Shown here piece after piece: positions 4,673 to 54,265 of a stretch of 64,000 nucleotides of DNA. Position numbers and translations under genes: made by a program. This stretch comes from Candidatus Sysuimicrobiota bacterium (GTDB lineage: Bacteria > Sysuimicrobiota > Sysuimicrobiia > Sysuimicrobiales > Sysuimicrobiaceae). How positions within the stretch are numbered: position 1 is the first letter of the stretch; each line of letters opens with the position of its first letter. Location: assembly GCA_040289515.1 (NCBI GenBank), contig PSLI01000001.1, positions 1 to 64,000 of the forward strand. Reading direction: 5' to 3'. Under the pieces are notes generated by a model. It was not told the origin of the DNA. It was given only the letters and a program-made list of their open reading frames with translations, and made no database searches.

Positions 4673-6421
4673 ATGGCGACGGTACAGCGGCTGGAGCTCA
4701 TGCGGGTAGCGCAGGGGCAGAAGCCCGCAGACCTCCTGGTGACCGGTGGCACCGTCCTGGACGTGTACACCGGCGAGCTGGTGCGGGACTGGGTGGTGGC
4801 GGCCAAGGGGGAGCGGGTGGCGTACGTGGGACCCTGGCAGAGGGGGCTGGAGGGTCCCGGTACCCTGGTGCTGGACGCCCAAGGGCAGGTGGTGGTGCCC
4901 GGGCTTGTGGACGCGCACACCCACCTGTTCGGCGCCCGCTACGCTCCGCACGCAGCGCTCCCCCACATCGTGGCGGGCGGGACCACGTGTCTGGTGACGG
5001 AGATCTCGGAGCTGGCCTACGTGACAGGAGAGCTGGGAATCCGTGCGGCTCTGGAAGCCCTGCGGGGCTTGCCGGTGAAGGTGTACGCCACCTTGCCGCC
5101 CCTTGCGGCCGCAGCGCCCCACCTGGAGCGCCACGCGCCGTCCGCGGAGGTTTACTGGGAACTGTTCCAGGATCCCCTGGTGGTGGGGCTGGGGGAGGTG
5201 TACTGGGGCAATTTGGTCTTCCGGGAGGATGCCCGGTTTGTGGAGCTGGTGGACCTCGCGCACCGGGCGGGAAAGGTGGTGGACGGCCACGCCGCGGGCG
5301 CCCGCGGGCCGCGCTTAGCGGCTTACGCCGCCGCGGGGGTTACCTCGTGTCACGAGTCCACCACCGAGGAAGAGGTGCTGGAGCGACTGCGGCTCGGCTA
5401 CCACACCCTCGTGCGGGAAGGGAAGATCCGCCAGGACCTGGAGGCGGTGGCACCCCTGTGGCGTCGCCGGGGCGGGACCGTGCACCGGCTCTCCCTGGTT
5501 ACGGACAGCGTGGGTGCCCTGGAGATTTTGGAGGAAGGCTACATGGACGCGGTGGTGCGCAAGGCCGTGCGGCGGGGGTTGCACCCCGTAGAGGCCGTGC
5601 GCGCCGCCACCTTGGCTCCTGCAGAACGCTTCCGGTTGGACGGTGAGGTGGGCGGGTTGGCCCCAGGCCGCTACGCGGACTTCAGTCTGGTCCCCGACCT
5701 GGGAGAGTTCCGCCCCACGGTGGTGGTCAGCAACGGGCAGGTGGTGGCCCGGGAGGGCAGGCCCTTGATCCGCATACCGGCGCACCGCTACCCGGAAGCC
5801 CTGCTGAATTCCGTGCGCACGGAGCTGCCGTCCGCGGAGGCATTCCGGGTCCGCGCCCCGGTGATGCGGGGCGTGGTTCGGGCCCGCGTGATAGACCTCG
5901 TGACCCACCTGGTCACGCGGGAGGGCGAGGCGGAACTATCCGTGCAGGACGGGGAAGCCCTGTGCGGCCCCGACCTGGCCCTGGTGGCGGCTCTGGACCG
6001 GCAGGGCGGAGCGCCCTTCGTGGGGTTCGTGCGGGGCTTCGGCCTGCGAGCCGGCGCGTGCGCTACCAGCATGGCGTGGGACAGCCCCCTGCTGATAGCG
6101 GTGGGAAGCTCACCGGAGGAGCTGCGCTTCGCGCTGGAGCGCCTGCGGGTTCTGGGCGGAGGGGTGGTGGTGTGCGCGGGCGGTCGGGTGTTGGCGGAGC
6201 TGGCGGCACCGGTGGCGGGTGTGGTGTCGCTGGACTCCCTGGAGGAGGTGGCCCGCCGGGAGACCGCCCTGGACGGGGCGCTGCGGGTCCTGGGGGCCAG
6301 GGGGCCGCGGCCGTCCCTGACCGTGGACGTGCTCACTGCCGGTGCCATCCCCCACTTCCGCGTGTGCGACCGCGGGTACGTGCGGGTGCGGGACGGAGCC
6401 GTGCTGGGCGTGTGGGCTTGA
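4673..6421 (+). CDS. ade: Adenine deaminase-like amidohydrolase (divergent active site)
   Basis: PGLVDAHTH, DGHA, SCHES, GLAPGRYAD and an Ade C-terminal domain. Start ATG 4673 follows GGAG (ORF track start 4652). Confidence 0.8.
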   Translation: MATVQRLELMRVAQGQKPADLLVTGGTVLDVYTGELVRDWVVAAKGERVAYVGPWQRGLEGPGTLVLDAQGQVVVPGLVDAHTHLFGARYAPHAALPHIVAGGTTCLVTEISELAYVTGELGIRAALEALRGLPVKVYATLPPLAAAAPHLERHAPSAEVYWELFQDPLVVGLGEVYWGNLVFREDARFVELVDLAHRAGKVVDGHAAGARGPRLAAYAAAGVTSCHESTTEEEVLERLRLGYHTLVREGKIRQDLEAVAPLWRRRGGTVHRLSLVTDSVGALEILEEGYMDAVVRKAVRRGLHPVEAVRAATLAPAERFRLDGEVGGLAPGRYADFSLVPDLGEFRPTVVVSNGQVVAREGRPLIRIPAHRYPEALLNSVRTELPSAEAFRVRAPVMRGVVRARVIDLVTHLVTREGEAELSVQDGEALCGPDLALVAALDRQGGAPFVGFVRGFGLRAGACATSMAWDSPLLIAVGSSPEELRFALERLRVLGGGVVVCAGGRVLAELAAPVAGVVSLDSLEEVARRETALDGALRVLGARGPRPSLTVDVLTAGAIPHFRVCDRGYVRVRDGAVLGVWA

Positions 6422-6477
6422 CACCCGCACGGGGGAGCTGGTAGGGTTGGCCGTAACGGGACAACTGAATAGCAACA

Positions 6478-6584
6478 CCCTTATCCAGAGTGGGCGAGGG
6501 ACGGGCCCGATGACCCCCGGCAACCTACCGGCGCAGCGCCGGCAAGGTGCCAACTCCCGCGGAAGGCATTCCGAGAGATAAGGG
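6478..6584 (+). ncRNA. SAM-I (S-box) riboswitch aptamer
   Basis: P1 CCCTTATC/GATAAGGG, CAGAG, GAGGGACGGGCCCGATGA kink-turn/pseudoknot, GGCAACC...GGTGCCAACTCC core. Confidence 0.95.
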
Positions 6585-6592
6585 CGATCGTT

Positions 6593-6633
6593 GCCCTCCG
6601 CGGCTGGATTCCGCTGCCGGAGGGTTTCGCTTT
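6593..6633 (+). terminator. Riboswitch expression-platform terminator
   Basis: CCCTCCG...CGGAGGG stem followed by TTTCGCTTT, directly 3' of the aptamer. Confidence 0.65.
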
Positions 6634-6646
6634 GTCTGGAGGGTGC

Positions 6647-7582
6647 ATGCGGGTGCGGGTAACGGTACCGGCTACCTCCGCCAACCTGGGCCCGGGGTTT
6701 GACTGCCTGGCCGTGGCCCTGGCCTTGCGCAACGAGGTGGAGGCCAGCCTGGCACAGACGCCGCGGGTGGAGGTCCGCGGGGAAGGGGAGGGCGCGTTGC
6801 CGCACGATCCCAGCAACCTGGTGTACCGGGCGGCCCAGGCGGTGGCGGAGCGGTGCGGAGCGTGGGGGGTAAGCTTCGCTTTCCGCTGCGCCAACCGGAT
6901 TCCCCTGGACCGCGGCCTGGGCAGCAGCGCCGCCGCCCGGGTGGCTGGGATCGCGGCCGCCAACCGGCTGCTGGGAAGCCCCTTGCCCTTCGAGGAGCTG
7001 GTTCGGCTGAGCGTGGAGCTGGAGGGCCACCCCGACAACGCGATGGCCGCCTGGGTGGGCGGGCTGGTGGTGTCCGTGCGGCGGTCCGATGGAGGCGTGT
7101 CCTGGCAGCGGGTGGTACCGGAGCGGTTCCCGTCGGTGGTGCTGTGTGTTCCGGAGCTGCGGGTTTCCACGCGAGAGGCGCGGGCCCGGCTGCCCGCCGC
7201 GGTGAGTTTGGAGGACGCGGTGTTCAACACGGGACGCGCGGCCCTGCTGGTGGCTGCGGTGTGTCGCGGGGACTTCGAAGCGCTGGCGGTGGCCACCCAG
7301 GACCGGCTGCACCAGCCCTATCGGCAGGCGCTGGTACCCGGGTTTCCGGACGCGGTGGCCGCCGCCCGCGAGGCGGGTGCGTGGGGAGCGGTGCTGAGCG
7401 GGGCCGGCAGCAGCCTGCTGGCCCTTTGCTCCAGAGAGCGGGTGGAGCTTGTGGGCGAGGCCATGCGGGCAGCCCTGGAGCGCCACGGAGTCCGCAGCCA
7501 CTGGATGTTGTCTTCCCTGGACGCGCAGGGAACGGTGGTGGAGGACCTCGACGACGGAGGAGGTGGAACGTGGGACGGGTAG
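6647..7582 (+). CDS. thrB: Homoserine kinase
   Basis: VPATSANLGPGFD, PLDRGLGSSAA, EGHPDN, DRLHQPYR, LSGAG. Confidence 0.96.
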   Translation: MRVRVTVPATSANLGPGFDCLAVALALRNEVEASLAQTPRVEVRGEGEGALPHDPSNLVYRAAQAVAERCGAWGVSFAFRCANRIPLDRGLGSSAAARVAGIAAANRLLGSPLPFEELVRLSVELEGHPDNAMAAWVGGLVVSVRRSDGGVSWQRVVPERFPSVVLCVPELRVSTREARARLPAAVSLEDAVFNTGRAALLVAAVCRGDFEALAVATQDRLHQPYRQALVPGFPDAVAAAREAGAWGAVLSGAGSSLLALCSRERVELVGEAMRAALERHGVRSHWMLSSLDAQGTVVEDLDDGGGGTWDG

Positions 7583-8793
7583 CGCACCTGCGGTGTCGGG
7601 CGTGCAGCACGGCGTACCCGGTGGGCCCCGAGTACGTGTGCGAGCGGTGTTTCGGTCCCCTGGAGGTGGAGTACGAGGCCGCCAGCCTGCGGGAGGCCAC
7701 GCGAGAACGGATCGCGTCCGGTCCCCGGTCCATCTGGCGCTACCGGGCCCTGCTGCCGGCAGAACCCGAGGAGGACGACCTGCAGCCCGGCTTCACGCCC
7801 CTGGTGCCAGCCCGGCGCCTGGCGGAGCGCCTGGGCCTTAAGCACCTGTACCTGAAGAACGACACCACCAACCCCACCTGGTCCTTCAAGGACCGCGTGG
7901 TGGCGGTGGCGGTGGCGGCGGCGCGTGCCTTCGGGTTCCGCGTGCTGGCCTGCGCGTCTACGGGCAACCTGGCTCACGCGGTGGCGGCCCACGCGGCCCG
8001 GGCGGGGATGCGGGCGGTGGTGTTCGTGCCCCAGGGGCTGGAAGCAGGCAAGGTGCTCGCTACCTCCGTGTACGACCCCACCGTGGTGGAGGTGGAGGGC
8101 AGCTACGACGACGTGAACCGGCTGTGCACGGAGATCGCGGGGGAGCACCCCTGGGCATTTGCCAACATCAACGTGCGGCCTTTCTACTCGGAGGGCTGCA
8201 AGACCATCGCCTTCGAGGTGGCCGAACAGCTGGGCTGGCGGTTGCCGCACCACGTGGTGATCCCCGTGGCCTCGGGGAACCTGTTCGTGAAGACGGAGAG
8301 GGCGTTCTCGGAACTGCTGCAGCTGGGTCTGGCGGAGGGCTCCCTGCCGCGGCTGCACGGGGCGCAGGCGGCCGGCTGTGCGCCCATCGCGGAAGCGCAC
8401 CGGCGCGGGGACGCCCAGGTCCTCCCCGTGCGGCCGAGGACGGTGGCCAAGTCCTTGGCCATCGGCAACCCCGCCGACGGTTCCTACGCGCTCCAGACCG
8501 TCCGCAGGACCGGAGGGGTGTTCGAGGTGGCCACAGACGACGAGATCGTGGAGGGGATGCGGCTGCTGGCCCAAACGGAGGGAATCTTCGCGGAGACCGC
8601 GGGCGGGGTCACCGTGGCCGTGCTCCGCAAGCTGGCGGAGGCCGGTGTGTTCGGCCCGGAGGAGGTGGTGGTGGCCCTCGTCACGGGTGCGGGGCTGAAA
8701 ACCCTGGAGGCCGTCCAAGATGGCAGCCGCCCCCCGATCCGCATCCGGCCGACCCTCAGGGACTTTGAACGGCAGGTCCTGGCGGCGGTGTAG
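7570..8793 (+). CDS. Threonine synthase-like PLP enzyme with N-terminal Zn ribbon (second paralogue, SAM-regulated)
   Basis: GTG start overlaps the thrB end. CRAC...CERC ribbon, NPTWSFKDR (PLP Lys), ASTGNLA, NVRPFYSEG, SLAIGNPADG, TGAGLK. Confidence 0.9.
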   Translation: MGRVAHLRCRACSTAYPVGPEYVCERCFGPLEVEYEAASLREATRERIASGPRSIWRYRALLPAEPEEDDLQPGFTPLVPARRLAERLGLKHLYLKNDTTNPTWSFKDRVVAVAVAAARAFGFRVLACASTGNLAHAVAAHAARAGMRAVVFVPQGLEAGKVLATSVYDPTVVEVEGSYDDVNRLCTEIAGEHPWAFANINVRPFYSEGCKTIAFEVAEQLGWRLPHHVVIPVASGNLFVKTERAFSELLQLGLAEGSLPRLHGAQAAGCAPIAEAHRRGDAQVLPVRPRTVAKSLAIGNPADGSYALQTVRRTGGVFEVATDDEIVEGMRLLAQTEGIFAETAGGVTVAVLRKLAEAGVFGPEEVVVALVTGAGLKTLEAVQDGSRPPIRIRPTLRDFERQVLAAV

Positions 8794-8852: not shown

Positions 8853-9305
8853 ATGAGCCTGGTGGTGGAACCGGCCAAGCCGCAGGACGAGGCGGAGATC
8901 CGGCAGCTGGTGCAGTCGGTGCTGAGTGAGGTCGGCCTGCCGTACGATGCGGCGGTGGCTGAGGAGCTCACCAACCTGGAGGAGCACTTCCCCCAGCCCC
9001 GGTCGGTGTTCTTCGTGGCGCGGCTGGATGGCCGCATCGTGGGTACCATCGCGGCGAAGGAGGCGGGCAAGGGGCGGGCGGTGCTGAAGCACCAGTACGT
9101 GCACGCGGACTACCGCCGCCGCGGGATCGGGGCCAAGCTCCTGGACGCCGCCCTGGTGTACTGGCGGGTGTGCGGGTACGGGGAGGTGGAGCTGCAGACC
9201 GCTCCCTGGATGCAACAGGCCCAGCGCCTGTACCGCTCCCGCGGGTTCCGGGAAATCCACCGGGGCGAGCAGGCGGTACGCTACTGCCTGGTACTGGCTC
9301 CCTGA
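8853..9305 (+). CDS. GNAT family N-acetyltransferase
   Basis: YVHADYRRRGIGAKLL acetyl-CoA motif, AQRLYRSRGF. An in-frame CTG at 8808 after AAGGAG is an alternative start. Confidence 0.85.
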   Translation: MSLVVEPAKPQDEAEIRQLVQSVLSEVGLPYDAAVAEELTNLEEHFPQPRSVFFVARLDGRIVGTIAAKEAGKGRAVLKHQYVHADYRRRGIGAKLLDAALVYWRVCGYGEVELQTAPWMQQAQRLYRSRGFREIHRGEQAVRYCLVLAP

Positions 9306-9306
9306 C

Positions 9307-10230
9307 GTGGGGTGCTCTTCCGCCGACGCCTCCGAGGTTCTGGAGCGCATCGCTCAGGAGATCCGGTCCTGCACGCGCTGCCCCCTGCACGAGGGTCGCA
9401 CGCACGCGGTGCCGGGCGAGGGTCCACCGGGAGCGCCGCTGCTGTTTGTGGGGGAGGGGCCGGGGGCTGAGGAGGACCAGCAGGGCCGCCCCTTCGTGGG
9501 AGCTGCGGGGCGCCTGCTGGACCGGCTGCTGGCCAGCATCCGGATCCCGCGGGAGCGGGTATTCATCACCAACACGGTGCGCTGTCGGCCCCCCGGCAAC
9601 CGGGAACCGCACCCGGAGGAGATCGCCAGCTGCCTGCCGTACCTAGTGCGCCAGATGAGCGTTCTGCAGCCCCGGGTGGTGTGCCTGCTGGGTGCCACGG
9701 CCACCCGGGCGCTGCTGGGCACCCGCGAGAAGCTGAGCGAGGTACGGGGCCGGGCGCTGCGGGAGGCGGGTCGGTGGTGGTTCGCCACGTACCACCCCGC
9801 CGCGGCGCTGCGCAGCGCGTCCCTGGCGGGCACCCTGCAGGAGGACTTCCGGCGGCTGCGCTGGCTGGTGGACGTGGAGTGGGGCACCGTGGACCCGCAG
9901 GCCTGGAAGCCCGGCACCCTGAACAAGCTTTTCTCCGAGGGCTCGCCCACGGAGCCCGTGCTGCTGGAGGGAACGGAGGTGCTGCGGGTGAGCTGGGAGG
10001 TAAAAGGCGTGCACCCCGTCTTCCGCACAGAGTCGGCGCTGGGGGAGCTGGTGCGGCGGTTCGTACTGCGCAAGCGCTGGGCTGGTCCCGATGCTGTGGT
10101 GGAGGTGGTGCGCCTGCACACTACGGATGGCCAGGGCCGGCCCGTGGCCCCGGAGAGCCCCGGGTGCGCGCACCTGCACGCGGAGGTTCGTGTGCGAAAA
10201 ACCAGCTCTGGGGGTGCGCCGGGATTTTAA
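9307..10230 (+). CDS. udg: Family 4 uracil-DNA glycosylase (Fe-S) with extra C-terminal domain
   Basis: CTRCPL, VGEGPGAEED..GRPFVG, CRPPGNR, TYHPAAALR, then about 115 extra residues. Confidence 0.9.
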   Translation: MGCSSADASEVLERIAQEIRSCTRCPLHEGRTHAVPGEGPPGAPLLFVGEGPGAEEDQQGRPFVGAAGRLLDRLLASIRIPRERVFITNTVRCRPPGNREPHPEEIASCLPYLVRQMSVLQPRVVCLLGATATRALLGTREKLSEVRGRALREAGRWWFATYHPAAALRSASLAGTLQEDFRRLRWLVDVEWGTVDPQAWKPGTLNKLFSEGSPTEPVLLEGTEVLRVSWEVKGVHPVFRTESALGELVRRFVLRKRWAGPDAVVEVVRLHTTDGQGRPVAPESPGCAHLHAEVRVRKTSSGGAPGF

Positions 10231-21237: not shown

Positions 21238-22113
21238 GTGCCCGTGGAGGAGCTGAGGCTGAACGCGTACGCCAAGGTGAATCTGAGCCTGGATGTGCTG
21301 GGGCGGCGGCCGGACGGCTACCACGAGGTGGAGACGGTGCTGCACACCCTGGAGCTTCACGACACCGTGGTGCTGCGCGAGGCCGAGGGCGGCGTGCGGG
21401 TGGTGTGCGACCACCGGCGCGTGCCCACGGGCGAGCAGAACCTGGTGTTCCACACAGCCCAGCTGCTGCGGGAGGTATCGGGCGTGCCACGGGGCGTGGA
21501 GGTGGAGATCCACAAACGCATCCCGCCCGCCTCGGGGCTGGGCGGGGGTTCCTCGGACGCCGCGGTGACCCTGTTGGGGCTGGCGCAGATGTGGAAGCTA
21601 CGCCTGGACCATGCGCAGCTGGTGGAGCTGGCCTCGCAGGTGGGCTCGGATGTGCCCTTCTTCCTGGTGGGGGGAGCCGCCCTGGTCACGGGCCGCGGGG
21701 AGCGGTTGCGGTTTCTGCCCACCCTGCCCACCACCTGGGTGGTGCTGGCCTGCCCCACGGTGGAGATCTCCACCGCGTGGGCGTACGCACACCTAGACCT
21801 CCGCGCGGTGGCGCGGAGGCCCGACACCACGCGCCTGGTGGAGGCCCTGCGGGCGGAGGACGTGGCCGCGGTGGCCCGGGAGCTCTGCAATGTGTTCGAG
21901 CCCCTCGTGTCCAGTCGTTGTCCGCAGGTGCTGGAGCTGAAGGAGCGGTTGCAGGCCGCGGGAGCCTTGGGTGCCAGCATGACGGGAACTGGGCCCGCGG
22001 TGTTCGGTCTGTTCCCGGGTGAGCAGGAGGCGCACCGGGCTTGGGAGGTTCTGAAGGACACCGTGGACGGCGAGGTGATCCTCACCCGCACCTTCGCGGA
22101 GCTGGAGCGGTGA
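21238..22113 (+). CDS. ispE: 4-diphosphocytidyl-2-C-methyl-D-erythritol kinase
   Basis: AYAKVNLSL, RPDGYHE, KRIP..SGLGGGSSDAA, GSDVPFF. Confidence 0.96.
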   Translation: MPVEELRLNAYAKVNLSLDVLGRRPDGYHEVETVLHTLELHDTVVLREAEGGVRVVCDHRRVPTGEQNLVFHTAQLLREVSGVPRGVEVEIHKRIPPASGLGGGSSDAAVTLLGLAQMWKLRLDHAQLVELASQVGSDVPFFLVGGAALVTGRGERLRFLPTLPTTWVVLACPTVEISTAWAYAHLDLRAVARRPDTTRLVEALRAEDVAAVARELCNVFEPLVSSRCPQVLELKERLQAAGALGASMTGTGPAVFGLFPGEQEAHRAWEVLKDTVDGEVILTRTFAELER

Positions 22114-47530: not shown

Positions 47531-48360
47531 GCACCCCGCGGGTGGCCTTTCAGGGTGAGCGGGGCGCCTTCAGTGAGGAGGCGGCTCTGCAGCAATTCGG
47601 GCAGGTGGAGGTCCTGCCCCGGCGCACCCTGCGCGAGGTGTTCGAGACGATAGCGCGCGAAGAGGCGGACGCGGGCATTGTGCCGGTGGAGAACTCCGAG
47701 GCTGGCAGCATCAACGAGACGTACGACCTGCTGCTGCAGTTTCATCACGCTCTGCGCATCACGGGGGAGGTGACCCTGCGGGTCTCCCACTGCCTGCTGG
47801 GGATTCCGGGCACCACCCTAGACCGCGTGCGTCGCGTGTACTCCCACCCCCAGGCCCTGGCGCAGTGCGAGGCGTTCCTGCGGCAGCTGAAAGCGGAGGT
47901 GATCCCGTACTACGACACCGCGGGCTCCGCGCAGATGCTGGCCCGGAGCCCTGCCCCCGACGCCGCGGCTATCGCCAGCCGGCGCGCCGCGGAGCTGTAT
48001 GGGCTGGTGGTGCTGGCGGAGGAGATCCAGACCAACCCCCTGAACTACACGCGGTTTTTGTCCGTGGCCAAAAGCCCCGCGCCGCGCCGGGACCCCAGCA
48101 AGACCTCCGTGGTGTTCGCGACCGCCCACCGGCCCGGGGCCCTGTACCGCGCCCTGGGCGCTTTGGCCCAGGAGGGGCTGAACCTAACCAAGTTGGAGAG
48201 CCGGCCCGCACGCCAAGCGGTTTGGGAGTACGTGTTCTACGTGGACTTTGAGGGTCACGAGGAGGAGGCGCGTGTGCAGCGCGCCCTGGAAGCGCTCCGG
48301 GCGCAGTGCCTGTGGGTCATCCGGCTGGGCTCGTACCCCGCCGCGGGATTGCCCCCATGA
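47527..48360 (+). CDS. pheA: Prephenate dehydratase (monofunctional, ACT domain)
   Basis: FQGERGAFSE, PVENS..GSI, SHPQALAQC, NYTRF, NLTKLESRP, LGSY. Confidence 0.95.
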   Translation: MSTPRVAFQGERGAFSEEAALQQFGQVEVLPRRTLREVFETIAREEADAGIVPVENSEAGSINETYDLLLQFHHALRITGEVTLRVSHCLLGIPGTTLDRVRRVYSHPQALAQCEAFLRQLKAEVIPYYDTAGSAQMLARSPAPDAAAIASRRAAELYGLVVLAEEIQTNPLNYTRFLSVAKSPAPRRDPSKTSVVFATAHRPGALYRALGALAQEGLNLTKLESRPARQAVWEYVFYVDFEGHEEEARVQRALEALRAQCLWVIRLGSYPAAGLPP

Positions 48361-49421
48361 GGCCGTGGCCCGGAGTTCTGCAGGCGTTCGCCGACCGCCT
48401 GCCCGTGACGGACCGCACCCCGATGCTGTCCCTGCAGGAGGGCAACACCCCCCTGGTGCCCTCCGTGTCCATCGGACGCGAACTAGCGGAAGCGGAGCTG
48501 TACTTCAAATGGGAGGGCGCCAACCCCACGGGCTCCTTCAAGGACCGGGGCATGGTGGTGGCCGTGGCCAAAGCCGTGGAATCCGGCGCTTGCGCGGTGG
48601 TGTGCGCGTCCACAGGAAACACCGCGGCGTCTGCGGCGGCGTACGCGGCCCGGGCGGGGCTCCGCTGCCTGGTGGTACTGCCAGAGGGATCCGTGGCCAC
48701 GGGCAAGCTGGCTCAGGCCCGGGTGCACGGGGCGGTGGTGGCCAGCGTCCCGTGCTCCTTCGACCGGGCCCTGCAGCTGGTACGGGAGGCCAGCGAGCGG
48801 TTGTCGGTCGCCCTGGTCAACTCCGTAAACCCCTACCGCCTGGAGGGACAGAAAACCGCGGCCTTCGAGATCCTGGAGCAGCTGGGACGCCCGCCCAACG
48901 CGGTGGTGCTCCCGGTGGGCAATGCGGGCAACATCACCGCCTACTGGCGCGGGTTCTGCGAGGGGTTGGAGCCCGCTTCCCGGCCGCGCCTGTGGGGGGT
49001 ACAGGCCGCGGGCGCGGCGCCTCTGGTTTTGGGCAGCCCGGTGGACCACCCGCAAACCGTGGCCAGTGCCATCCGGATCGGCCGGCCCGCCTCGTGGGAG
49101 GGCGCGTTGCAGGCCGCTGCGGAGTCCGGGGGCCGAATCCTGGCGGTTACCGACGAGGAGATCCTGGAGGCGCAGGCGCGGCTGGCTCGGGAGGAAGGCT
49201 TGTTCGTGGAACCTGCCTCCGCGGCCTCGGTGGCAGGGTTGCTGCGTCTGGTTCGGGAGGGGGTGCAGATCCGCGGCACCGTGGTGGCCGTGCTAACCGG
49301 CCATGGGCTCAAGGACCCCACCAGCGCCGACCGCGCGCCGCCCCCGGTGCAGGTGGAGCCCACCGTGGAGGCCCTGGACGACCTGCTGGCAAGGCGTTCT
49401 CGGTCACCCGCGGGCCGGTAA
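48357..49421 (+). CDS. thrC: Threonine synthase (canonical short type)
   Basis: EGNTPL, NPTGSFKDRGM, CASTGNT, NSVNPYRLEGQKT, TVASAIRIG, TGHGLKDP. Next to hom and lysC. Confidence 0.95.
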   Translation: MRPWPGVLQAFADRLPVTDRTPMLSLQEGNTPLVPSVSIGRELAEAELYFKWEGANPTGSFKDRGMVVAVAKAVESGACAVVCASTGNTAASAAAYAARAGLRCLVVLPEGSVATGKLAQARVHGAVVASVPCSFDRALQLVREASERLSVALVNSVNPYRLEGQKTAAFEILEQLGRPPNAVVLPVGNAGNITAYWRGFCEGLEPASRPRLWGVQAAGAAPLVLGSPVDHPQTVASAIRIGRPASWEGALQAAAESGGRILAVTDEEILEAQARLAREEGLFVEPASAASVAGLLRLVREGVQIRGTVVAVLTGHGLKDPTSADRAPPPVQVEPTVEALDDLLARRSRSPAGR

Positions 49422-49432
49422 AATCAAGCGAG

Positions 49433-50707
49433 ATGCTGCGCGTGGGCCTATTAGGGCTGGGAACGGTCGGGAGCGCCGTGGTGCGCGGGCTGCAGCACAC
49501 CTCCGCGGAGCTGCAGCACCGGGCTGGGATGCCCATTGTTCTCCGCCGGGTGGCTGTGGCGCACCTTGACAAGCCCCGCCCCGTGACACTGGACAGGGAC
49601 CTCCTCACGGACGACGCCTGGGCGGTGGTGCGCGACCCTGAGGTGGACGTGGTGGTGGAGCTTATCGGGGGCCTGGAGCCGGCCCGCAGCTACGTGCACG
49701 AGGCGCTCCGCCTGGGCAAGTCCGTGGTCACCGCCAACAAGCAGCTTATGGCCGGCCGCGGCCGGGAGCTGCTGCAGGCCGCGGAGGCCTCCGAAGTGGA
49801 CCTGCTCTTCGAGGCCAGCGTGGCAGGGGGGATCCCCATCATCCGCACCCTCAAGGAGTCCCTGGCGGGCGACCGGGTGCGGGAGATCGCCGCCATCCTA
49901 AACGGCACGACCAACTACATCCTCACCCGCATGGAGGAGGAAGGGCTGTCGTTTGCGGAAGCCCTGAGCGAGGCGCAGCGGTTGGGCTTCGCGGAGAGCG
50001 ACCCGACGGAGGACATCGAGGGGCACGACGCCGCGGCGAAGCTGGCCATCCTGGCCAGCGTGGCCTTCAACAGCCGGGTGGTGCGCAGCGATGTGTCCTG
50101 CGAGGGGATCGCGCAGCTCACCCAGCGGGAGGTCACCTACGCCCGGCAGCTGGGGTTCACCCTGAAGCTGGTGGCCCACGCGCGGGACCTGGGGGAGGAG
50201 GTGGAGGTGGCGGTGTATCCGGCCCTGCTGCCCAGCTCCCACCCCCTGGCCTCCGTGCGGCGGGAGTTCAACGCGGTGTGGATGCGGGCGGAGTCCTCAG
50301 GGGAGCTGCTCCTATACGGCCGCGGGGCCGGGGGACAGCCCACCGCCTCCGCAGTGCTGTCGGACCTGGTGGCGGTGGCCCGGAACCGACGCCGCAATGC
50401 TCACGGCCGGGTGAGCTGCACCTGTTACCACCGCAAGGCGATCCGCAGAGCGGGCGACCGGGAGGTGAGCGCGTGCCTCGTGCTGCGGGTGGTGGACCGG
50501 CCCGGGGTGTTTGCGCAGGTGGCCTCGGCCTTCGCGGACGAACAGGTGAGCCTGCACTCCATCGTGCAGCAGAGCCGGGGACAGGAGGCGGACGTCCTCC
50601 TGCGTACCCACCCCGCTCCGGAGCGCGCCCTGCGGGCGGTTTTGCACAGGCTGTCGGGCATGCCCGTGGTGCGGGGCTGCAGCCCCCTGCTGCGGGTGAT
50701 TGAATGA
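49433..50707 (+). CDS. hom: Homoserine dehydrogenase (with ACT domain)
   Basis: GLGTVG, VVTANK, FEASVAGGIP, NGTTNYIL, GRGAGG.PTASAV. Confidence 0.96.
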   Translation: MLRVGLLGLGTVGSAVVRGLQHTSAELQHRAGMPIVLRRVAVAHLDKPRPVTLDRDLLTDDAWAVVRDPEVDVVVELIGGLEPARSYVHEALRLGKSVVTANKQLMAGRGRELLQAAEASEVDLLFEASVAGGIPIIRTLKESLAGDRVREIAAILNGTTNYILTRMEEEGLSFAEALSEAQRLGFAESDPTEDIEGHDAAAKLAILASVAFNSRVVRSDVSCEGIAQLTQREVTYARQLGFTLKLVAHARDLGEEVEVAVYPALLPSSHPLASVRREFNAVWMRAESSGELLLYGRGAGGQPTASAVLSDLVAVARNRRRNAHGRVSCTCYHRKAIRRAGDREVSACLVLRVVDRPGVFAQVASAFADEQVSLHSIVQQSRGQEADVLLRTHPAPERALRAVLHRLSGMPVVRGCSPLLRVIE

Positions 50708-50735
50708 CCCCAAGAAAGCGAGGACACGAGCGGCC

Positions 50736-51950
50736 ATGAGCCTCATTGTGCAGAAGTTCGGCGGCACCTCGGTGGCGACGCCGGAGCGGATGTTCCACGT
50801 GGCCCGCCGGGTGGCCCGCACGCGGCGGGCAGGCCACCAGGTGGTGGTGGTGGTCTCGGCCCCGGGGGACACGACCGACGAGCTCATCCAGCGCGCCCAC
50901 CAGATCACGGAGCGGCCCTCGCCGCGGGAGCTGGACATGCTCCTGGCGGTGGGCGAGCAGATGTCCGTGGCCTTGTTGGCCATGGCCCTGCAGGAGGAGG
51001 GGGAGCGGGCCACCGCACTGACGGGCTGGCAGGTGCGCATCCTCACCGAACCCGTGCACACCAAGGCCCGCATCCTGGAGGTGGAACGGGGCCGGCTGCT
51101 GGACGAGCTGGCGCGCGGCCGCATCCCGGTGGTGGCGGGGTTCCAAGGGGTGACGGCCTTCGGGGAAGTCACCACGCTTGGGCGGGGCGGGTCCGACACC
51201 ACCGCGGTGGCGGTGGCTGCGGCCCTGGAAGCGGACGTGTGTGAAATCTACACCGACGTGCCGGGGGTGTTCACCGCGGACCCTCGCCTGGTGCCCACGG
51301 CCCGGAAGCTGCCGTACCTCACGTACGACGAGATGCTGGAGATGGCGTCCTCGGGGGCGGTGGTGGTGCAGACCCGGGCCGCGGAGTACGCCAAGCTGCA
51401 CCGGGTGCGGCTGCACGTGCGGAGCACCTTCGAGGAGGAGGAGGGAACCCTGATCGGGGAGGAGCCCATGGAGCCGGTGCGGTCCGTGAACGCGGTGACG
51501 CACGACGTGGACGTGTGCAAGATCACGGTGCAGGACCTGCCCGACGTGCCGGGCGTGGCCCACCGGCTGTTCGGGGTGCTGGCGGAGGCCCACGTGAACG
51601 TGGACATGATCGTGCAGACCGCCAGCCGGGGCGGGCGGGCGGACATCTCCTTCACCGTGAGCCGCGCAGACGCCCGGGCAGCCCTGGAGGGTGCGGAACG
51701 GGTGGCCCGGGAGCTGGGGGCTGGGAAGGTGGAAAGCGAGGAGGGAGTGGCCAAGGTGTCCGTAGTCGGGGCGGGGATGGTGAGCAACCCCGGGGTGGCC
51801 GCCACCATGTTCGGCGCTTTGGCCGCGGAGCAGATCAACATCCAGATGATCAGCACCTCCGAGATCAAGATCTCCTGCGTCATCGACGCCGCCTCCGTGC
51901 CCCGGGCGGTGCGGGCCCTGCACCGGGCCTTCAACCTCGAGGAGGACTGA
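50736..51950 (+). CDS. lysC: Aspartate kinase (alpha subunit)
   Basis: VQKFGGTS, TTLGRGGSDTTA, YTDVPG, two ACT domains, ISTSEIKIS. Confidence 0.96.
   Translation: MSLIVQKFGGTSVATPERMFHVARRVARTRRAGHQVVVVVSAPGDTTDELIQRAHQITERPSPRELDMLLAVGEQMSVALLAMALQEEGERATALTGWQVRILTEPVHTKARILEVERGRLLDELARGRIPVVAGFQGVTAFGEVTTLGRGGSDTTAVAVAAALEADVCEIYTDVPGVFTADPRLVPTARKLPYLTYDEMLEMASSGAVVVQTRAAEYAKLHRVRLHVRSTFEEEEGTLIGEEPMEPVRSVNAVTHDVDVCKITVQDLPDVPGVAHRLFGVLAEAHVNVDMIVQTASRGGRADISFTVSRADARAALEGAERVARELGAGKVESEEGVAKVSVVGAGMVSNPGVAATMFGALAAEQINIQMISTSEIKISCVIDAASVPRAVRALHRAFNLEED
51468..51950 (+). CDS. Putative nested aspartate kinase beta subunit (in-frame internal start)
   Basis: GGGGAGGAG SD directly before an in-frame ATG (EEP-MEPV) at the kinase/ACT boundary. 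Confidence 0.65.
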   Translation: MEPVRSVNAVTHDVDVCKITVQDLPDVPGVAHRLFGVLAEAHVNVDMIVQTASRGGRADISFTVSRADARAALEGAERVARELGAGKVESEEGVAKVSVVGAGMVSNPGVAATMFGALAAEQINIQMISTSEIKISCVIDAASVPRAVRALHRAFNLEED

Positions 51951-52060
51951 AACCCGAACGCTTCTCGCAAACTGTCTTGGACGGCTGCCAACTTCCCGGT
52001 AGCATAGGGCCGGCGGCCGGCACGTACCGGACGGCCCGTTCGTCATTTCCGAACTGGAGG
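51950..52060 (+). promoter_or_regulatory. Promoter with PurBox-like sites upstream of purine permease
   Basis: AAACCCGAACGCTT (51950-51963), TTGGAC-17-TAGCAT (51977-52005), GTTCG (52038) and ATTTCCGAAC (52045-52054) next to the SD. Confidence 0.6.
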
Positions 52061-52068
52061 TGGTGGCG

Positions 52069-53469
52069 TTGGCGCATGCGCGCGCCCTCCCGGTGGAGGC
52101 AGGCTGGCTGGAGCGCACCTTTCAGCTGCGGGAGCGTAACACCACGGTGGGCACCGAGGTGCGGGCGGGGCTGACCACCTTCATGGTCATGGCCTACATC
52201 ATTTTTGTGAACCCCAGCATCCTAGGCCAGGTGGCAGACCCCACGGGGGCCAAGATGCCCTTCCCGGCTGCGCTCACGGTCACGTGCCTGACTGCGGGCG
52301 TGCTCAGCATCCTCATGGGCCTTGCGTCTAACTACCCCTTTGCCCTGGCGCCGGGCATGGGGCTGAACGCGGTGGTGACCTTCCAGCTGGTGGGAGCCCT
52401 GAAGTTGACCTGGCCGCAGGCCATGTCCGTGATCCTGCTGGAAGGCCTGGTGATCCTGGTCCTGGTGCTCACCCGGTTCCGGGAGGCGGTCATGGATGCC
52501 ATCCCCATGTCCCTGAAGCGGGCCATCGGGGTGGGCATCGGCCTGTTCATCGCCCTGATCGGGTTCGTGAACGGCGGCTTCGTCTCCAAGGGCGAGGCCA
52601 CCGCTCTGACCCTAGGCCGGCTGCACGCCCTGCCCATGGCGGTGTTCGTGCTGGGGTTTTTGATCACGGGCTACCTGCTGGCTCGGCGGGTGCGGGGGGC
52701 TCTGCTGTCCGGCATCCTGCTGACCACGGCCGTGGCGGTGGTGGCCAACGCCCTGTGGGGTGGTGGCCGGGCCTTCGGTCCATCCGCGGTGCTGCCGGAG
52801 CGCTGGGTAGCGGCTCCCGCGGGCCTGTGGGGCCCGGACCGCGTGTTCGGCCGCGTGGACTTCGGCTTTTTCACCACCTTGGGGGTGGCCACGGCAGTTC
52901 TGGTCACCTTCTCCATCATGCTGGCGGACTTCTTCGACACCATGGGCACTGTGGTGGGCATCGCGGGAGAGGCGGGCTTCCTAGACCCGCAGGGCCGGCT
53001 GCCGCGGATCCGGCAGGTCCTGCTGGTGGACTCCCTGGGCGCTGCCCTGGGCGGGTTTGCCAACAGCAGCAGCAACACCACCTACATCGAAAGCGCCGCG
53101 GGGGTGGCGGAGGGCGGCCGCACGGGCGTGGTGTCCGTGGTGGTGGGCGTGCTGTTTTTGCTGGCCATGTTCTTGAACCCTATCGCGGGGATGGTGCCCA
53201 AGGAGGCCACGGCCCCCGCCCTGATCCTGGTGGGGTTCTTCATGATGACGGTGGCCAAGGACATCCCTTGGACGGACTACGAGGAGGCCATTCCCGCCTT
53301 CGTGACCATGCTGGTGATGCCCTTCACCTGGAACATCACCAACGGGATCGGGGCGGGGTTCATCACGTACACCGCTTTGAAACTTCTGGGCGGCAAAGCG
53401 CGCGAGGTGCGGCCCCTCATGTGGTTAGCGTCGGCCGCCTTCGTGGTGTACTTCCTGTTCCCCGCGTAG
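52069..53469 (+). CDS. NCS2/AzgA-type purine (adenine/guanine/hypoxanthine) permease
   Basis: AGLTTFMVMAYIIFVNP, APGMGLNA, DFFDTMGT, TTYIESAAGVAEGGRTG. TTG start after GGAGG. Confidence 0.94.
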   Translation: MAHARALPVEAGWLERTFQLRERNTTVGTEVRAGLTTFMVMAYIIFVNPSILGQVADPTGAKMPFPAALTVTCLTAGVLSILMGLASNYPFALAPGMGLNAVVTFQLVGALKLTWPQAMSVILLEGLVILVLVLTRFREAVMDAIPMSLKRAIGVGIGLFIALIGFVNGGFVSKGEATALTLGRLHALPMAVFVLGFLITGYLLARRVRGALLSGILLTTAVAVVANALWGGGRAFGPSAVLPERWVAAPAGLWGPDRVFGRVDFGFFTTLGVATAVLVTFSIMLADFFDTMGTVVGIAGEAGFLDPQGRLPRIRQVLLVDSLGAALGGFANSSSNTTYIESAAGVAEGGRTGVVSVVVGVLFLLAMFLNPIAGMVPKEATAPALILVGFFMMTVAKDIPWTDYEEAIPAFVTMLVMPFTWNITNGIGAGFITYTALKLLGGKAREVRPLMWLASAAFVVYFLFPA

Positions 53470-53473
53470 CGGT

Positions 53474-54265
53474 TTGCGCGTTGGTCTGGTAAGCCTGCTC
53501 ACGGACTTCGGGCCCCACGGCCGCTACGTGGCGGAGGTCCGGGCGGTGCTGCTAGCACCAGCTCCCGGCGCGCGCGTGGAGGTGGTAGACATCAGCCACG
53601 CGGTACGCCCGCACCACGTGCGGGAGGCCGCGTACCTGCTGCGTTCCGCGGTGCGCAGCTTCCCGCCGGGAACGGTACACGTGGCCGTGGTGGACCCCAC
53701 CGTGGGCACCGCGCGCCGGGCCGTGGTGGTAAGCTCCGGAGGCCACCTCCTGGTGGGGCCCGACAACGGCCTCCTGCTGCCCGCCGCCAGGTCTCTGGGC
53801 TCGCCCCAGGTGCGGGAGCTCGTGCACCCCGACCTGCGCAGACCGTGCGTGTACCCCACCTTCTGGGGACGGGACGTGTTTGCCCCGGCCGCCCGCTGGC
53901 TGGCCCTGGGCTTCCCCTTTGAGGAGGTGGGGCCAGAGGTCCGCGACCCTGTGGTGCTGGAGGAACGCGCCCCCCAGCGAGCGCCGGGACTACTGGTGGG
54001 AGAGGTGGTGACCTGCGACGCCTTCGGCAACCTCGGCACCAACATCCCCGGCAGCTGGCTGGACTCCCTGCCGGAGGCCGTCTGGGTCCGGCTGGAAAAT
54101 CGAGCTGAGCCCGCCCGGCGGGTGCGCACCTACGCAGATGCGGCTCCCGGCACTTTGGTGGTGCTGGTGGGTAGCGACGGGCTCGTGGAGGTGGCAGTAC
54201 GGGAGGGCAACGCCGCCTCCCGGCTTGGCGGGAGGCCGGGGGACCCCGTGGAGCTTCGAGCCTGA
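53474..54265 (+). CDS. SAM hydroxide adenosyltransferase/chlorinase-fluorinase family (DUF62) protein
   Basis: LLTDFG, DISH, VAVVDPTVGTARR, GPDNG, TFWGRDVFAP, DAFGNL, VEVAVREGNA. Confidence 0.92.
   Translation: MRVGLVSLLTDFGPHGRYVAEVRAVLLAPAPGARVEVVDISHAVRPHHVREAAYLLRSAVRSFPPGTVHVAVVDPTVGTARRAVVVSSGGHLLVGPDNGLLLPAARSLGSPQVRELVHPDLRRPCVYPTFWGRDVFAPAARWLALGFPFEEVGPEVRDPVVLEERAPQRAPGLLVGEVVTCDAFGNLGTNIPGSWLDSLPEAVWVRLENRAEPARRVRTYADAAPGTLVVLVGSDGLVEVAVREGNAASRLGGRPGDPVELRA

Follow-up and report, generated by a model that had tools for sequence, protein, structure and literature searches.

A SAM-I riboswitch precedes thrB and a MetM-type gene in Candidatus Sysuimicrobiota: a probable O-phosphohomoserine route to homocysteine

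Results

A probable MetM-type enzyme is encoded behind thrB

We analyzed a window of 64,000 nucleotides (nt) from a Candidatus Sysuimicrobiota bacterium (assembly GCA_040289515.1, contig PSLI01000001.1, positions 1 to 64,000 of the forward strand), in which an S-adenosylmethionine (SAM)-I riboswitch is followed by the homoserine kinase gene thrB and by an overlapping gene that databases label as threonine synthase. The 407-amino-acid (aa) product of this second gene is very probably a MetM-type enzyme that converts O-phosphohomoserine to homocysteine. This reading is based on the position of the protein in a phylogenetic tree, on the carrier gene metO found beside its orthologues, on the lack of detectable metA, metX, and metY genes, and on the replacement of the locus by metY-metA in two relatives. 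A published route of this kind, in which O-phosphohomoserine is converted to homocysteine by MetM, the carrier MetO, Mec, and MoeZ, is described for Streptomyces albulus in the cited parts of PMC13759103 (Table 2, S1D Text), where MetM is also said to be often misannotated as threonine synthase, and PMC12172450 places a SAM riboswitch upstream of metM. The sulfur carrier-dependent route on which the original prediction drew is real and published.

The metM-type gene (7570..8793, forward strand) begins with a GTG start codon, overlaps thrB by 13 nt, and encodes a fold-type II pyridoxal 5′-phosphate (PLP) enzyme with an N-terminal zinc ribbon (CRAC-x11-CERC), the segment NPTWSFKDR (encoded from position 7870), the PLP lysine K107, and the motif NINVRPFYSEGCK. 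In a quick IQ-TREE tree of 57 of the 126 collected proteins, which included one other long ThrC-like row and was built without Streptomyces, cyanobacterial, or cysteate synthase rows, 41 metM-type proteins stood apart from 15 canonical ThrC proteins (SH-aLRT of 100). The clade spans Actinomycetota, Chloroflexota, Nitrospinota, Aquificota, and others, and within it the protein of the window groups with actinomycete proteins from SAM-I-metM-metO loci. Its identity to the Nonomuraea protein, whose locus comprises SAM-I, the ThrC-like gene, and a GG-ended carrier in this order, is 52%, versus 41% to the window's own ThrC. Close homologues carry the NCBI label Armatimonadota. In the tree, a Candidatus Sysuimicrobiota record is placed with relatives that share its order, making this phylum (CSP1-3) the most likely one for the host.

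Most metM-type proteins have NxNxRP[YF]Y[SA]EGxK at the site of the canonical ThrC motif NSxNPxRxEGQK; the former pattern was unmatched in about a quarter of rows, mainly from Acidimicrobiia. The MetM-type protein of the window did not classify as a canonical ThrC, as it lacks NSxNPxRxEGQK and falls outside the ThrC clade. Its Tyr206 aligned with Arg160 of Thermus ThrC, a residue with a role in phosphate binding. The cysteate synthase-like identity that had been considered was rejected, with a TIGR03844 score of 73.2 bits against a cutoff of 324.9 bits.

We also examined 81 wider loci, namely the best 80 of 600 candidates and the Nonomuraea locus. A carrier gene was located within 400 nt downstream of metM in 48 of the 75 loci with enough flanking sequence, and thrB was present in 2 of 71. 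Twenty loci were picked by hand for spread; 13 of these had SAM-I upstream and one more had a T-box. Several wider loci, mostly of Dehalococcoidia, revealed a gap of approximately 300 to 400 nt between metM and the carrier.

The locus is replaced by metY-metA in two relatives

The comparison set comprised 41 genomes of one order, which are kin and not independent of each other. The metM-type gene was found in 37 of them, and exactly one thrB was found in 38, located beside metM in 24 genomes, beside thrC in 11, and elsewhere in 3. This sole thrB was controlled by SAM-I in 23 of the 38 genomes; in a comparison made by hand, it directly follows the riboswitch in 21, and G039 and G017 are the other two. 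The order in G039 (L208) is SAM-I-hom-thrB-metM-metO, while G017 carries SAM-I-hom-thrC-thrB-lysC-metM-metO as one operon, and in G016 the same long operon begins at a contig end (L090, L091, and L192 represent G017 and G016). Together, these arrangements suggest one ancestral aspartate pathway operon that was split in two ways.

Genes metA and metY were both present in 2 of the 41 genomes, G015 and G020, which are among the four genomes without metM. In both of them (L190:4299-6850 and L191:3050-5535, respectively) metY-metA follows the genome's single SAM-I riboswitch, whose leader has the same layout, and takes the place of thrB-metM-metO there. The remaining two genomes without metM, G023 and G032, are also without metA and metY. 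Further long ThrC-like paralogues, approximately 35% identical to both MetM and ThrC, were observed in G015, G020, and G032 (L202, L204, L205, and L207), in a genus without metM. In G020, a 711-codon frame (L084:3246-5378) has a thrB-like start and a lysC-like end and may represent a fusion or an overlap.

The SAM-I leader has the layout of an off-switch

The aptamer (S-box; 6478..6584, forward strand) matched the full Rfam covariance model RF00162 (positions 1 to 108) with 82.1 bits, above the gathering score of 44.4 bits, and it is the only copy in the 1.99-Mb, 96.66% complete assembly. A sigma-70-type promoter is predicted at 6418..6447 (forward strand), with TTGACA at 6418-6423, an 18-nt spacer, and the −10-like hexamer at 6442-6447 within TG-G-TAGGGT. 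The TTGACA element starts 60 bases upstream of the aptamer start and TTGAC occurs 49 to 60 nt upstream of the aptamer in all 26 SAM-I loci examined; a consensus scan called no promoter at 6418-6447. The predicted antiterminator (6581..6597, forward strand; AGGGCGA/UUGCCCU, 7 bp, −9.1 kcal/mol) takes up the P1 3′ strand as well as the 5′ arm of the terminator and is mutually exclusive with the latter. An equivalent helix folds in 23 of the 23 loci compared.

The predicted intrinsic terminator (6593..6635, forward strand) has a strong stem (6594-6624 within the hairpin 6592-6626, −22.3 kcal/mol) followed by a weak U-tract, TTTCGCTTTGT, with T at 5 of 8 positions and a longest run of 3. Between 6300 and 9400, the consensus scan found 2 terminator-like sites versus 0.7 expected, one of which is inside the leader hairpin. 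Energy minimization of the whole leader, run without ligand or pseudoknot, yielded non-native pairings. Collectively, we infer from the arrangement of these elements the usual transcriptional off-switch, with a predicted response to SAM. The original prediction of a SAM-I aptamer and terminator in front of thrB and an overlapping zinc ribbon ThrC-like gene was thereby confirmed (RF00162, 82.1 bits; TIGR00191, 246 bits); the description of these elements as clean applies to the aptamer and the stem and does not extend to the U-tract.

Weak U-tracts (5 of 8 T, runs of 2 to 3) were confined to six loci of the window's genus, whereas thrB loci of other genera have 6 to 7 T of 8, like metM-only loci; in this comparison the stem end was set by eye in 4 of 26 rows. 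We rejected the idea that thrB is generally preceded by a leakier terminator than metM alone is, given that the weak tract occurs only in the six loci of one genus. The weak U-tract would allow read-through in this genus. It is not a general adaptation, as the U-tracts of other genera that share this gene order are of the ordinary kind.

The only thrB detected would also feed threonine synthesis

The thrB gene (6647..7582, forward strand) encodes a 311-aa homoserine kinase that scored 246 bits against the TIGR00191 equivalog cutoff of 168.25 bits and is preceded by a Shine-Dalgarno-like GGAGGG at 6638-6643. It is the only homoserine kinase detected in the 96.66% complete assembly, as the original prediction had supposed. 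The genome contains two GHMP kinase N-domains, in thrB and in an open reading frame (ORF) at 21439 that reads as IspE, and the alternative kinases TIGR00938 (APH-type thrB) and TIGR02137 (thrH) had 0 matches; HomK was not searched for.

Canonical thrC (48357..49421, forward strand), also anticipated, lies with hom and lysC and without thrB at 48357-51950, approximately 41 kb from the riboswitch operon. Its 354-aa product carries NSVNPYRLEGQK, has no zinc ribbon, and matches PDB 2zsj with 394 bits, versus 194 bits for the metM-type protein. The hom (49433-50707) and lysC (50700-51950) genes lie on the same strand, and no Rfam element was found upstream of this cluster. We infer that hom and lysC supply homoserine and that ThrC depends on phosphohomoserine from the SAM-controlled ThrB. 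Because the sole thrB is SAM controlled and also feeds ThrC, high SAM would lower the supply of threonine. Directly downstream of lysC, at 52060-54265, we observed genes for an NCS2-type permease and a SAM hydroxide adenosyltransferase (DUF62-type).

The source genome contains no acylation route that we could find

The negative results for the source genome (G000; 1.99 Mb, 96.66% complete) mean that a gene was not found, not that it is proven absent. On these terms, none of metA, metX, and metY was found, so that the full metX/metY pathway that would have contradicted the original prediction was not seen; cysE, sulfite reductase, sat, and cysH were likewise not found. As no sulfate assimilation was found, the organism would rely on external sulfide, thiosulfate, or organic sulfur; its genome includes a gene resembling a thiosulfate sulfurtransferase. 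The genome encodes two methionine synthase systems. One is a MetE split into two adjacent genes (C71:9974-11901), of which only the second passes the methionine synthase cutoff, and the other is a homocysteine methyltransferase/methylenetetrahydrofolate reductase (MTHFR) fusion (C50).

The single ThiF-family gene is a ThiF-rhodanese fusion of the MoeZ type (C71:18466-19743), and the three ThiS-family domains are thiS, a moaD-moaE fusion, and a carrier on contig C13. The moaD-moaE fusion (C50:9465-10277) has an internal GG and would have to be cleaved, possibly by the Mec that would trim the carrier.

A CysO-type carrier is the likelier sulfur donor

A GG-ended carrier, MoeZ, and Mec are all present somewhere in the source genome. 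The C13 carrier gene (67223-67519) encodes the C terminus PAMAGG-GPRRWLCR, that is, GG followed by an 8-residue tail, and its profile retrieved CysO (3dwg_C) as the best PDB match. It is clustered (C13:67223-70307) with genes for a SerK/SbnI-like free serine kinase, CysM, Mec with an intact JAMM motif, and an Rrf2-like regulator, the last assigned by reading the sequence. A cluster of this type suggests that cysteine is formed from free serine via phosphoserine. In several relatives, genes for cystathionine beta-synthase and a cystathionine gamma-synthase/lyase family protein flank the carrier.

A carrier lies directly downstream of metM in all 17 loci from five other families, versus 0 of the 13 loci from families f1 and f3, where a dedicated metO downstream of metM was not found in any of the 13 loci. 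Since no dedicated metO follows metM, the locus of the window represents a variant of the MetM/MetO system. Searched with a MetO-type query, the 12 genomes of the host family yielded no separate MetO-type gene, whereas 10 of them contain a CysO-type carrier. In most families, MetO and CysO-type carriers form separate conserved clades (100/100), which are sister groups (SH-aLRT of 90) with the common tail I[IV]PAMAGG. Because no separate metO gene was found in the host family, the carrier would be borrowed from the cysteine pathway. We consider it reasonably likely, by analogy with CysO/CysM/Mec/MoeZR as described in part of PMC3227635, that the C13 carrier is the sulfur donor, matured by Mec and charged by MoeZ.

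The same product might be formed with another donor, such as free sulfide, a persulfide, or, in relatives, a domain fused to sulfite reductase, with metO lost as unneeded. This variant of the homocysteine reading is the less likely one, although the missing MetO-type gene in the host family and the lack of metO beside metM in G013 and G029 are consistent with it, as is the statement in PMC12172450 that Na2S as the sulfur source mimics MetM activity. Moreover, a third ubiquitin-like match was found in 8 of the 12 host family genomes, fused to sulfite reductase in all 6 whose context was examined, and EGCK replaces the EG[GAS]K of other proteins in all 13 members from families f1 and f3, which may reflect shared ancestry only. 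Against this stands the retention of MoeZ, Mec, and the CysO-type carrier, and the published enzyme is described as thiocarboxylate dependent (PMC13759103, in the part cited). Since the source genome has no match to sulfite reductase, nor to sat or cysH, a fused carrier cannot serve there.

The sulfite reductase with a C-terminal GG-ended ubiquitin-like domain is encoded in a sat-sir-cysH-siroheme operon (L075:3234-5159, L076-L079, and L193:4184-6106) and, among the families searched, was observed only in f1; it is missing from the source genome. Sulfite reductase-ubiquitin-like fusions in actinobacteria were noted in 2006 (PMC1779556, as far as the cited part goes). The fused domain forms its own long branch in the tree, and its candidacy as a displaced metO was not supported.

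In family f1 and f3 genomes, the position of metO is taken by other genes. A GNAT acetyltransferase gene (8853..9305, forward strand; 150 aa, Pfam PF00583) occupies the place that metO has in other families, and it is directly downstream of metM in 12 of 12 related loci without metO versus 0 of 17 with metO. The GNAT is lineage restricted, with 15 homologues found, and the stretch that separates its gene from metM gave no terminator-like call. GNAT is possibly only a neighbor. In each of the 13 genomes of f1 and f3, metM is followed by genes for GNAT and a family 4 uracil-DNA glycosylase that is extended at its C terminus (8853-10230 in the window). Elsewhere in the source genome, an RtcB-like gene of approximately 1,000 aa (C71:13069-16074) appears, as read from its sequence, to contain an intein insertion.

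Discussion

Proposed mechanism

Under the homocysteine reading, low SAM would let the antiterminator form and thrB and metM be transcribed, while at high SAM P1 would be fixed, the terminator would form, and both genes would be off. ThrB would phosphorylate homoserine in place of acylation by MetA or MetX. The MetM-type enzyme would then eliminate phosphate on PLP (K107) and add sulfur at the gamma carbon, not water at the beta carbon. The C13 carrier would be trimmed of its 8-residue tail by the neighboring Mec and thiocarboxylated by the single MoeZ, a supply shared with CysM, and homocysteine would be methylated by the split MetE or the homocysteine methyltransferase/MTHFR fusion. As ThrB would also feed ThrC, SAM would limit threonine, and the weak U-tract would allow some read-through.

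A broader proposal can be made only tentatively. Both sulfur amino acids may be formed via phosphorylation alone, with a SerK/SbnI-type kinase feeding CysM and ThrB feeding MetM, and in this family one ubiquitin-like carrier may serve both enzymes after the loss of metO. SAM would then throttle the only homoserine kinase and tie threonine and isoleucine to SAM, and the carrier-fused sulfite reductase of relatives could pass sulfur straight in. A serine kinase-like gene was found in 37 of the 41 genomes, including 34 of the 34 high-quality ones, and cysE was found in none of the 41.

Alternative products and points against the homocysteine reading

If the MetM-type protein were instead a second or bifunctional threonine synthase, thrB and the gene behind it would form a threonine module that came under SAM-I by chance. 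Homology searches do point to threonine synthases: the protein passes the TIGR00260 thrC model (270 bits versus a cutoff of 167; its PRK08197 score of 275 is below the threshold of 303), and its structure model (pLDDT of 91.6) retrieved only threonine synthases as top fold matches, with Arabidopsis 2c2b as the best whole-length match (TM of 0.90). The ESM Atlas matches were 'putative threonine synthase' clusters only, and no MetM entry was among the PDB sequence or fold search matches. The adjoining thrB, the Microcystis precedent, and two genomes without a second thrC, both discussed below, are also compatible with this alternative. However, canonical thrC is present in the source genome and in 20 of the 24 thrB-metM genomes, with contig-end fragments in 2 more, the canonical NSxNPxRxEGQK is replaced, Tyr206 stands at the position of Arg160 of the Thermus enzyme, and a second threonine synthase would leave the genome without any homocysteine route. 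We therefore regard this alternative as very improbable.

Plant-like transsulfuration, in which the MetM-type or the C14 enzyme would form cystathionine from phosphohomoserine and cysteine on the way to homocysteine, is slightly more improbable still, for although plants use phosphohomoserine in this way (cited part of bioRxiv 10.64898/2026.09.15.751699) and one PF01053 protein exists, this single enzyme is closest to methionine gamma-lyase and is not under SAM-I, and metM orthologues travel with a GG-ended carrier that transsulfuration does not need. Of the two products originally proposed, homocysteine was thus favored by the tree, the metO neighbors, the lack of metA, metX, and metY, and the metY-metA swap, while cystathionine remained unsupported.

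Several observations weigh against the homocysteine reading or against the sharing of the carrier. The metY-metA swap is confined to one genus and so counts as one event, and MetX-like matches were found in 3 of the 41 genomes, all three of which keep metM. No second thrC was found in the thrB-metM genomes G006 (83% complete) and G038 (92% complete). The Cys/Met metabolism PLP enzyme of the source genome (PF01053, C14), whose best match, methionine gamma-lyase, is below the cutoff, has no assigned role. Orthology to the S. albulus MetM (UniProt A0A059WBP2) was traced via proxies (Nonomuraea, Streptosporangium, Micromonospora, and others). PMC12172450, in the part cited, describes a Microcystis protein that is 51.6% identical to MetM and yet is a threonine synthase/deaminase, so that identity of about 50% does not fix function. 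Finally, both carrier clades have long been retained, a pattern that suggests partner specificity and speaks against easy sharing.

Significance

The MetM/MetO route of Streptomyces albulus is reportedly the subject of Hasebe et al. 2024, Appl Environ Microbiol 90:e0124724. As this route was published in 2024, the homocysteine chemistry proposed here is not new. The present analysis adds four points: metY-metA as a natural replacement control, the lack throughout the order of acylation routes to either sulfur amino acid, a sole thrB under SAM control, and the loss of metO across the host family. In the literature searched, with most subscription journals outside its scope, we found no description of a SAM-controlled thrB-metM unit, of a MetM using CysO, or of a free serine kinase with CysO. 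The main text of PMC11604079 on the phylum CSP1-3, to the extent covered, mentions methionine once, unrelated to the route, and never threonine or riboswitches.

For a whole uncultured order, the analysis corrects a likely misannotation, in 37 of 41 genomes, and closes an apparent gap in methionine synthesis. The metY-metA swap behind the same riboswitch constitutes a naturally occurring genetic control for the function of MetM outside Streptomyces, and the family without metO offers a direct test case for one sulfur carrier serving both cysteine and homocysteine synthases. With the only homoserine kinase under a SAM switch, the question arises of how threonine is supplied at high SAM.

Comparison with known systems

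Cysteate synthase (TIGR03844) shares the ThrC fold and an N-terminal extension with the MetM-type protein, which is not a member of that family, as its score is 73 against 325. The Bacillus/Thermus-type ThrC enzymes (PDB 1uim, 2zsj, 6cgq, and 2d1f) have the same fold, PLP lysine motif, and presumed substrate. The MetM-type protein differs from them by approximately 55 extra N-terminal residues, four conserved cysteines, a different motif, and a separate clade, and the other gene of the window encodes a true ThrC.

With the CysO/CysM/Mec/MoeZR system of Mycobacterium (PMC3227635, as cited above; PDB 3dwg), the source genome shares the combination of a phospho-amino acid with a protein thiocarboxylate and the clustering of carrier, cysM, and mec. 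In contrast to that system, the cluster here includes a SerK/SbnI-like free serine kinase, the C-terminal tail of the carrier needs trimming, and CysM is closer in sequence to the enterobacterial CysM/OASS-B and 1ve1 than to 3dwg.

The nearest system is MetM/MetO of S. albulus. Common to both are a ThrC-like enzyme mislabeled as threonine synthase, a SAM riboswitch upstream, the absence of an acyltransferase route, and the presence of MoeZ and Mec, and the enzyme belongs to a clade shared with actinomycete SAM-I-metM-metO loci. The locus described here differs in that no metO was found beside metM or elsewhere, the only such carrier being the CysO-type one in the cysteine cluster, and in that a GNAT gene occupies the metO position. 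Furthermore, the host belongs to Sysuimicrobiota and not to the actinomycetes, and thrB, the only homoserine kinase gene found, lies inside the SAM-controlled unit.

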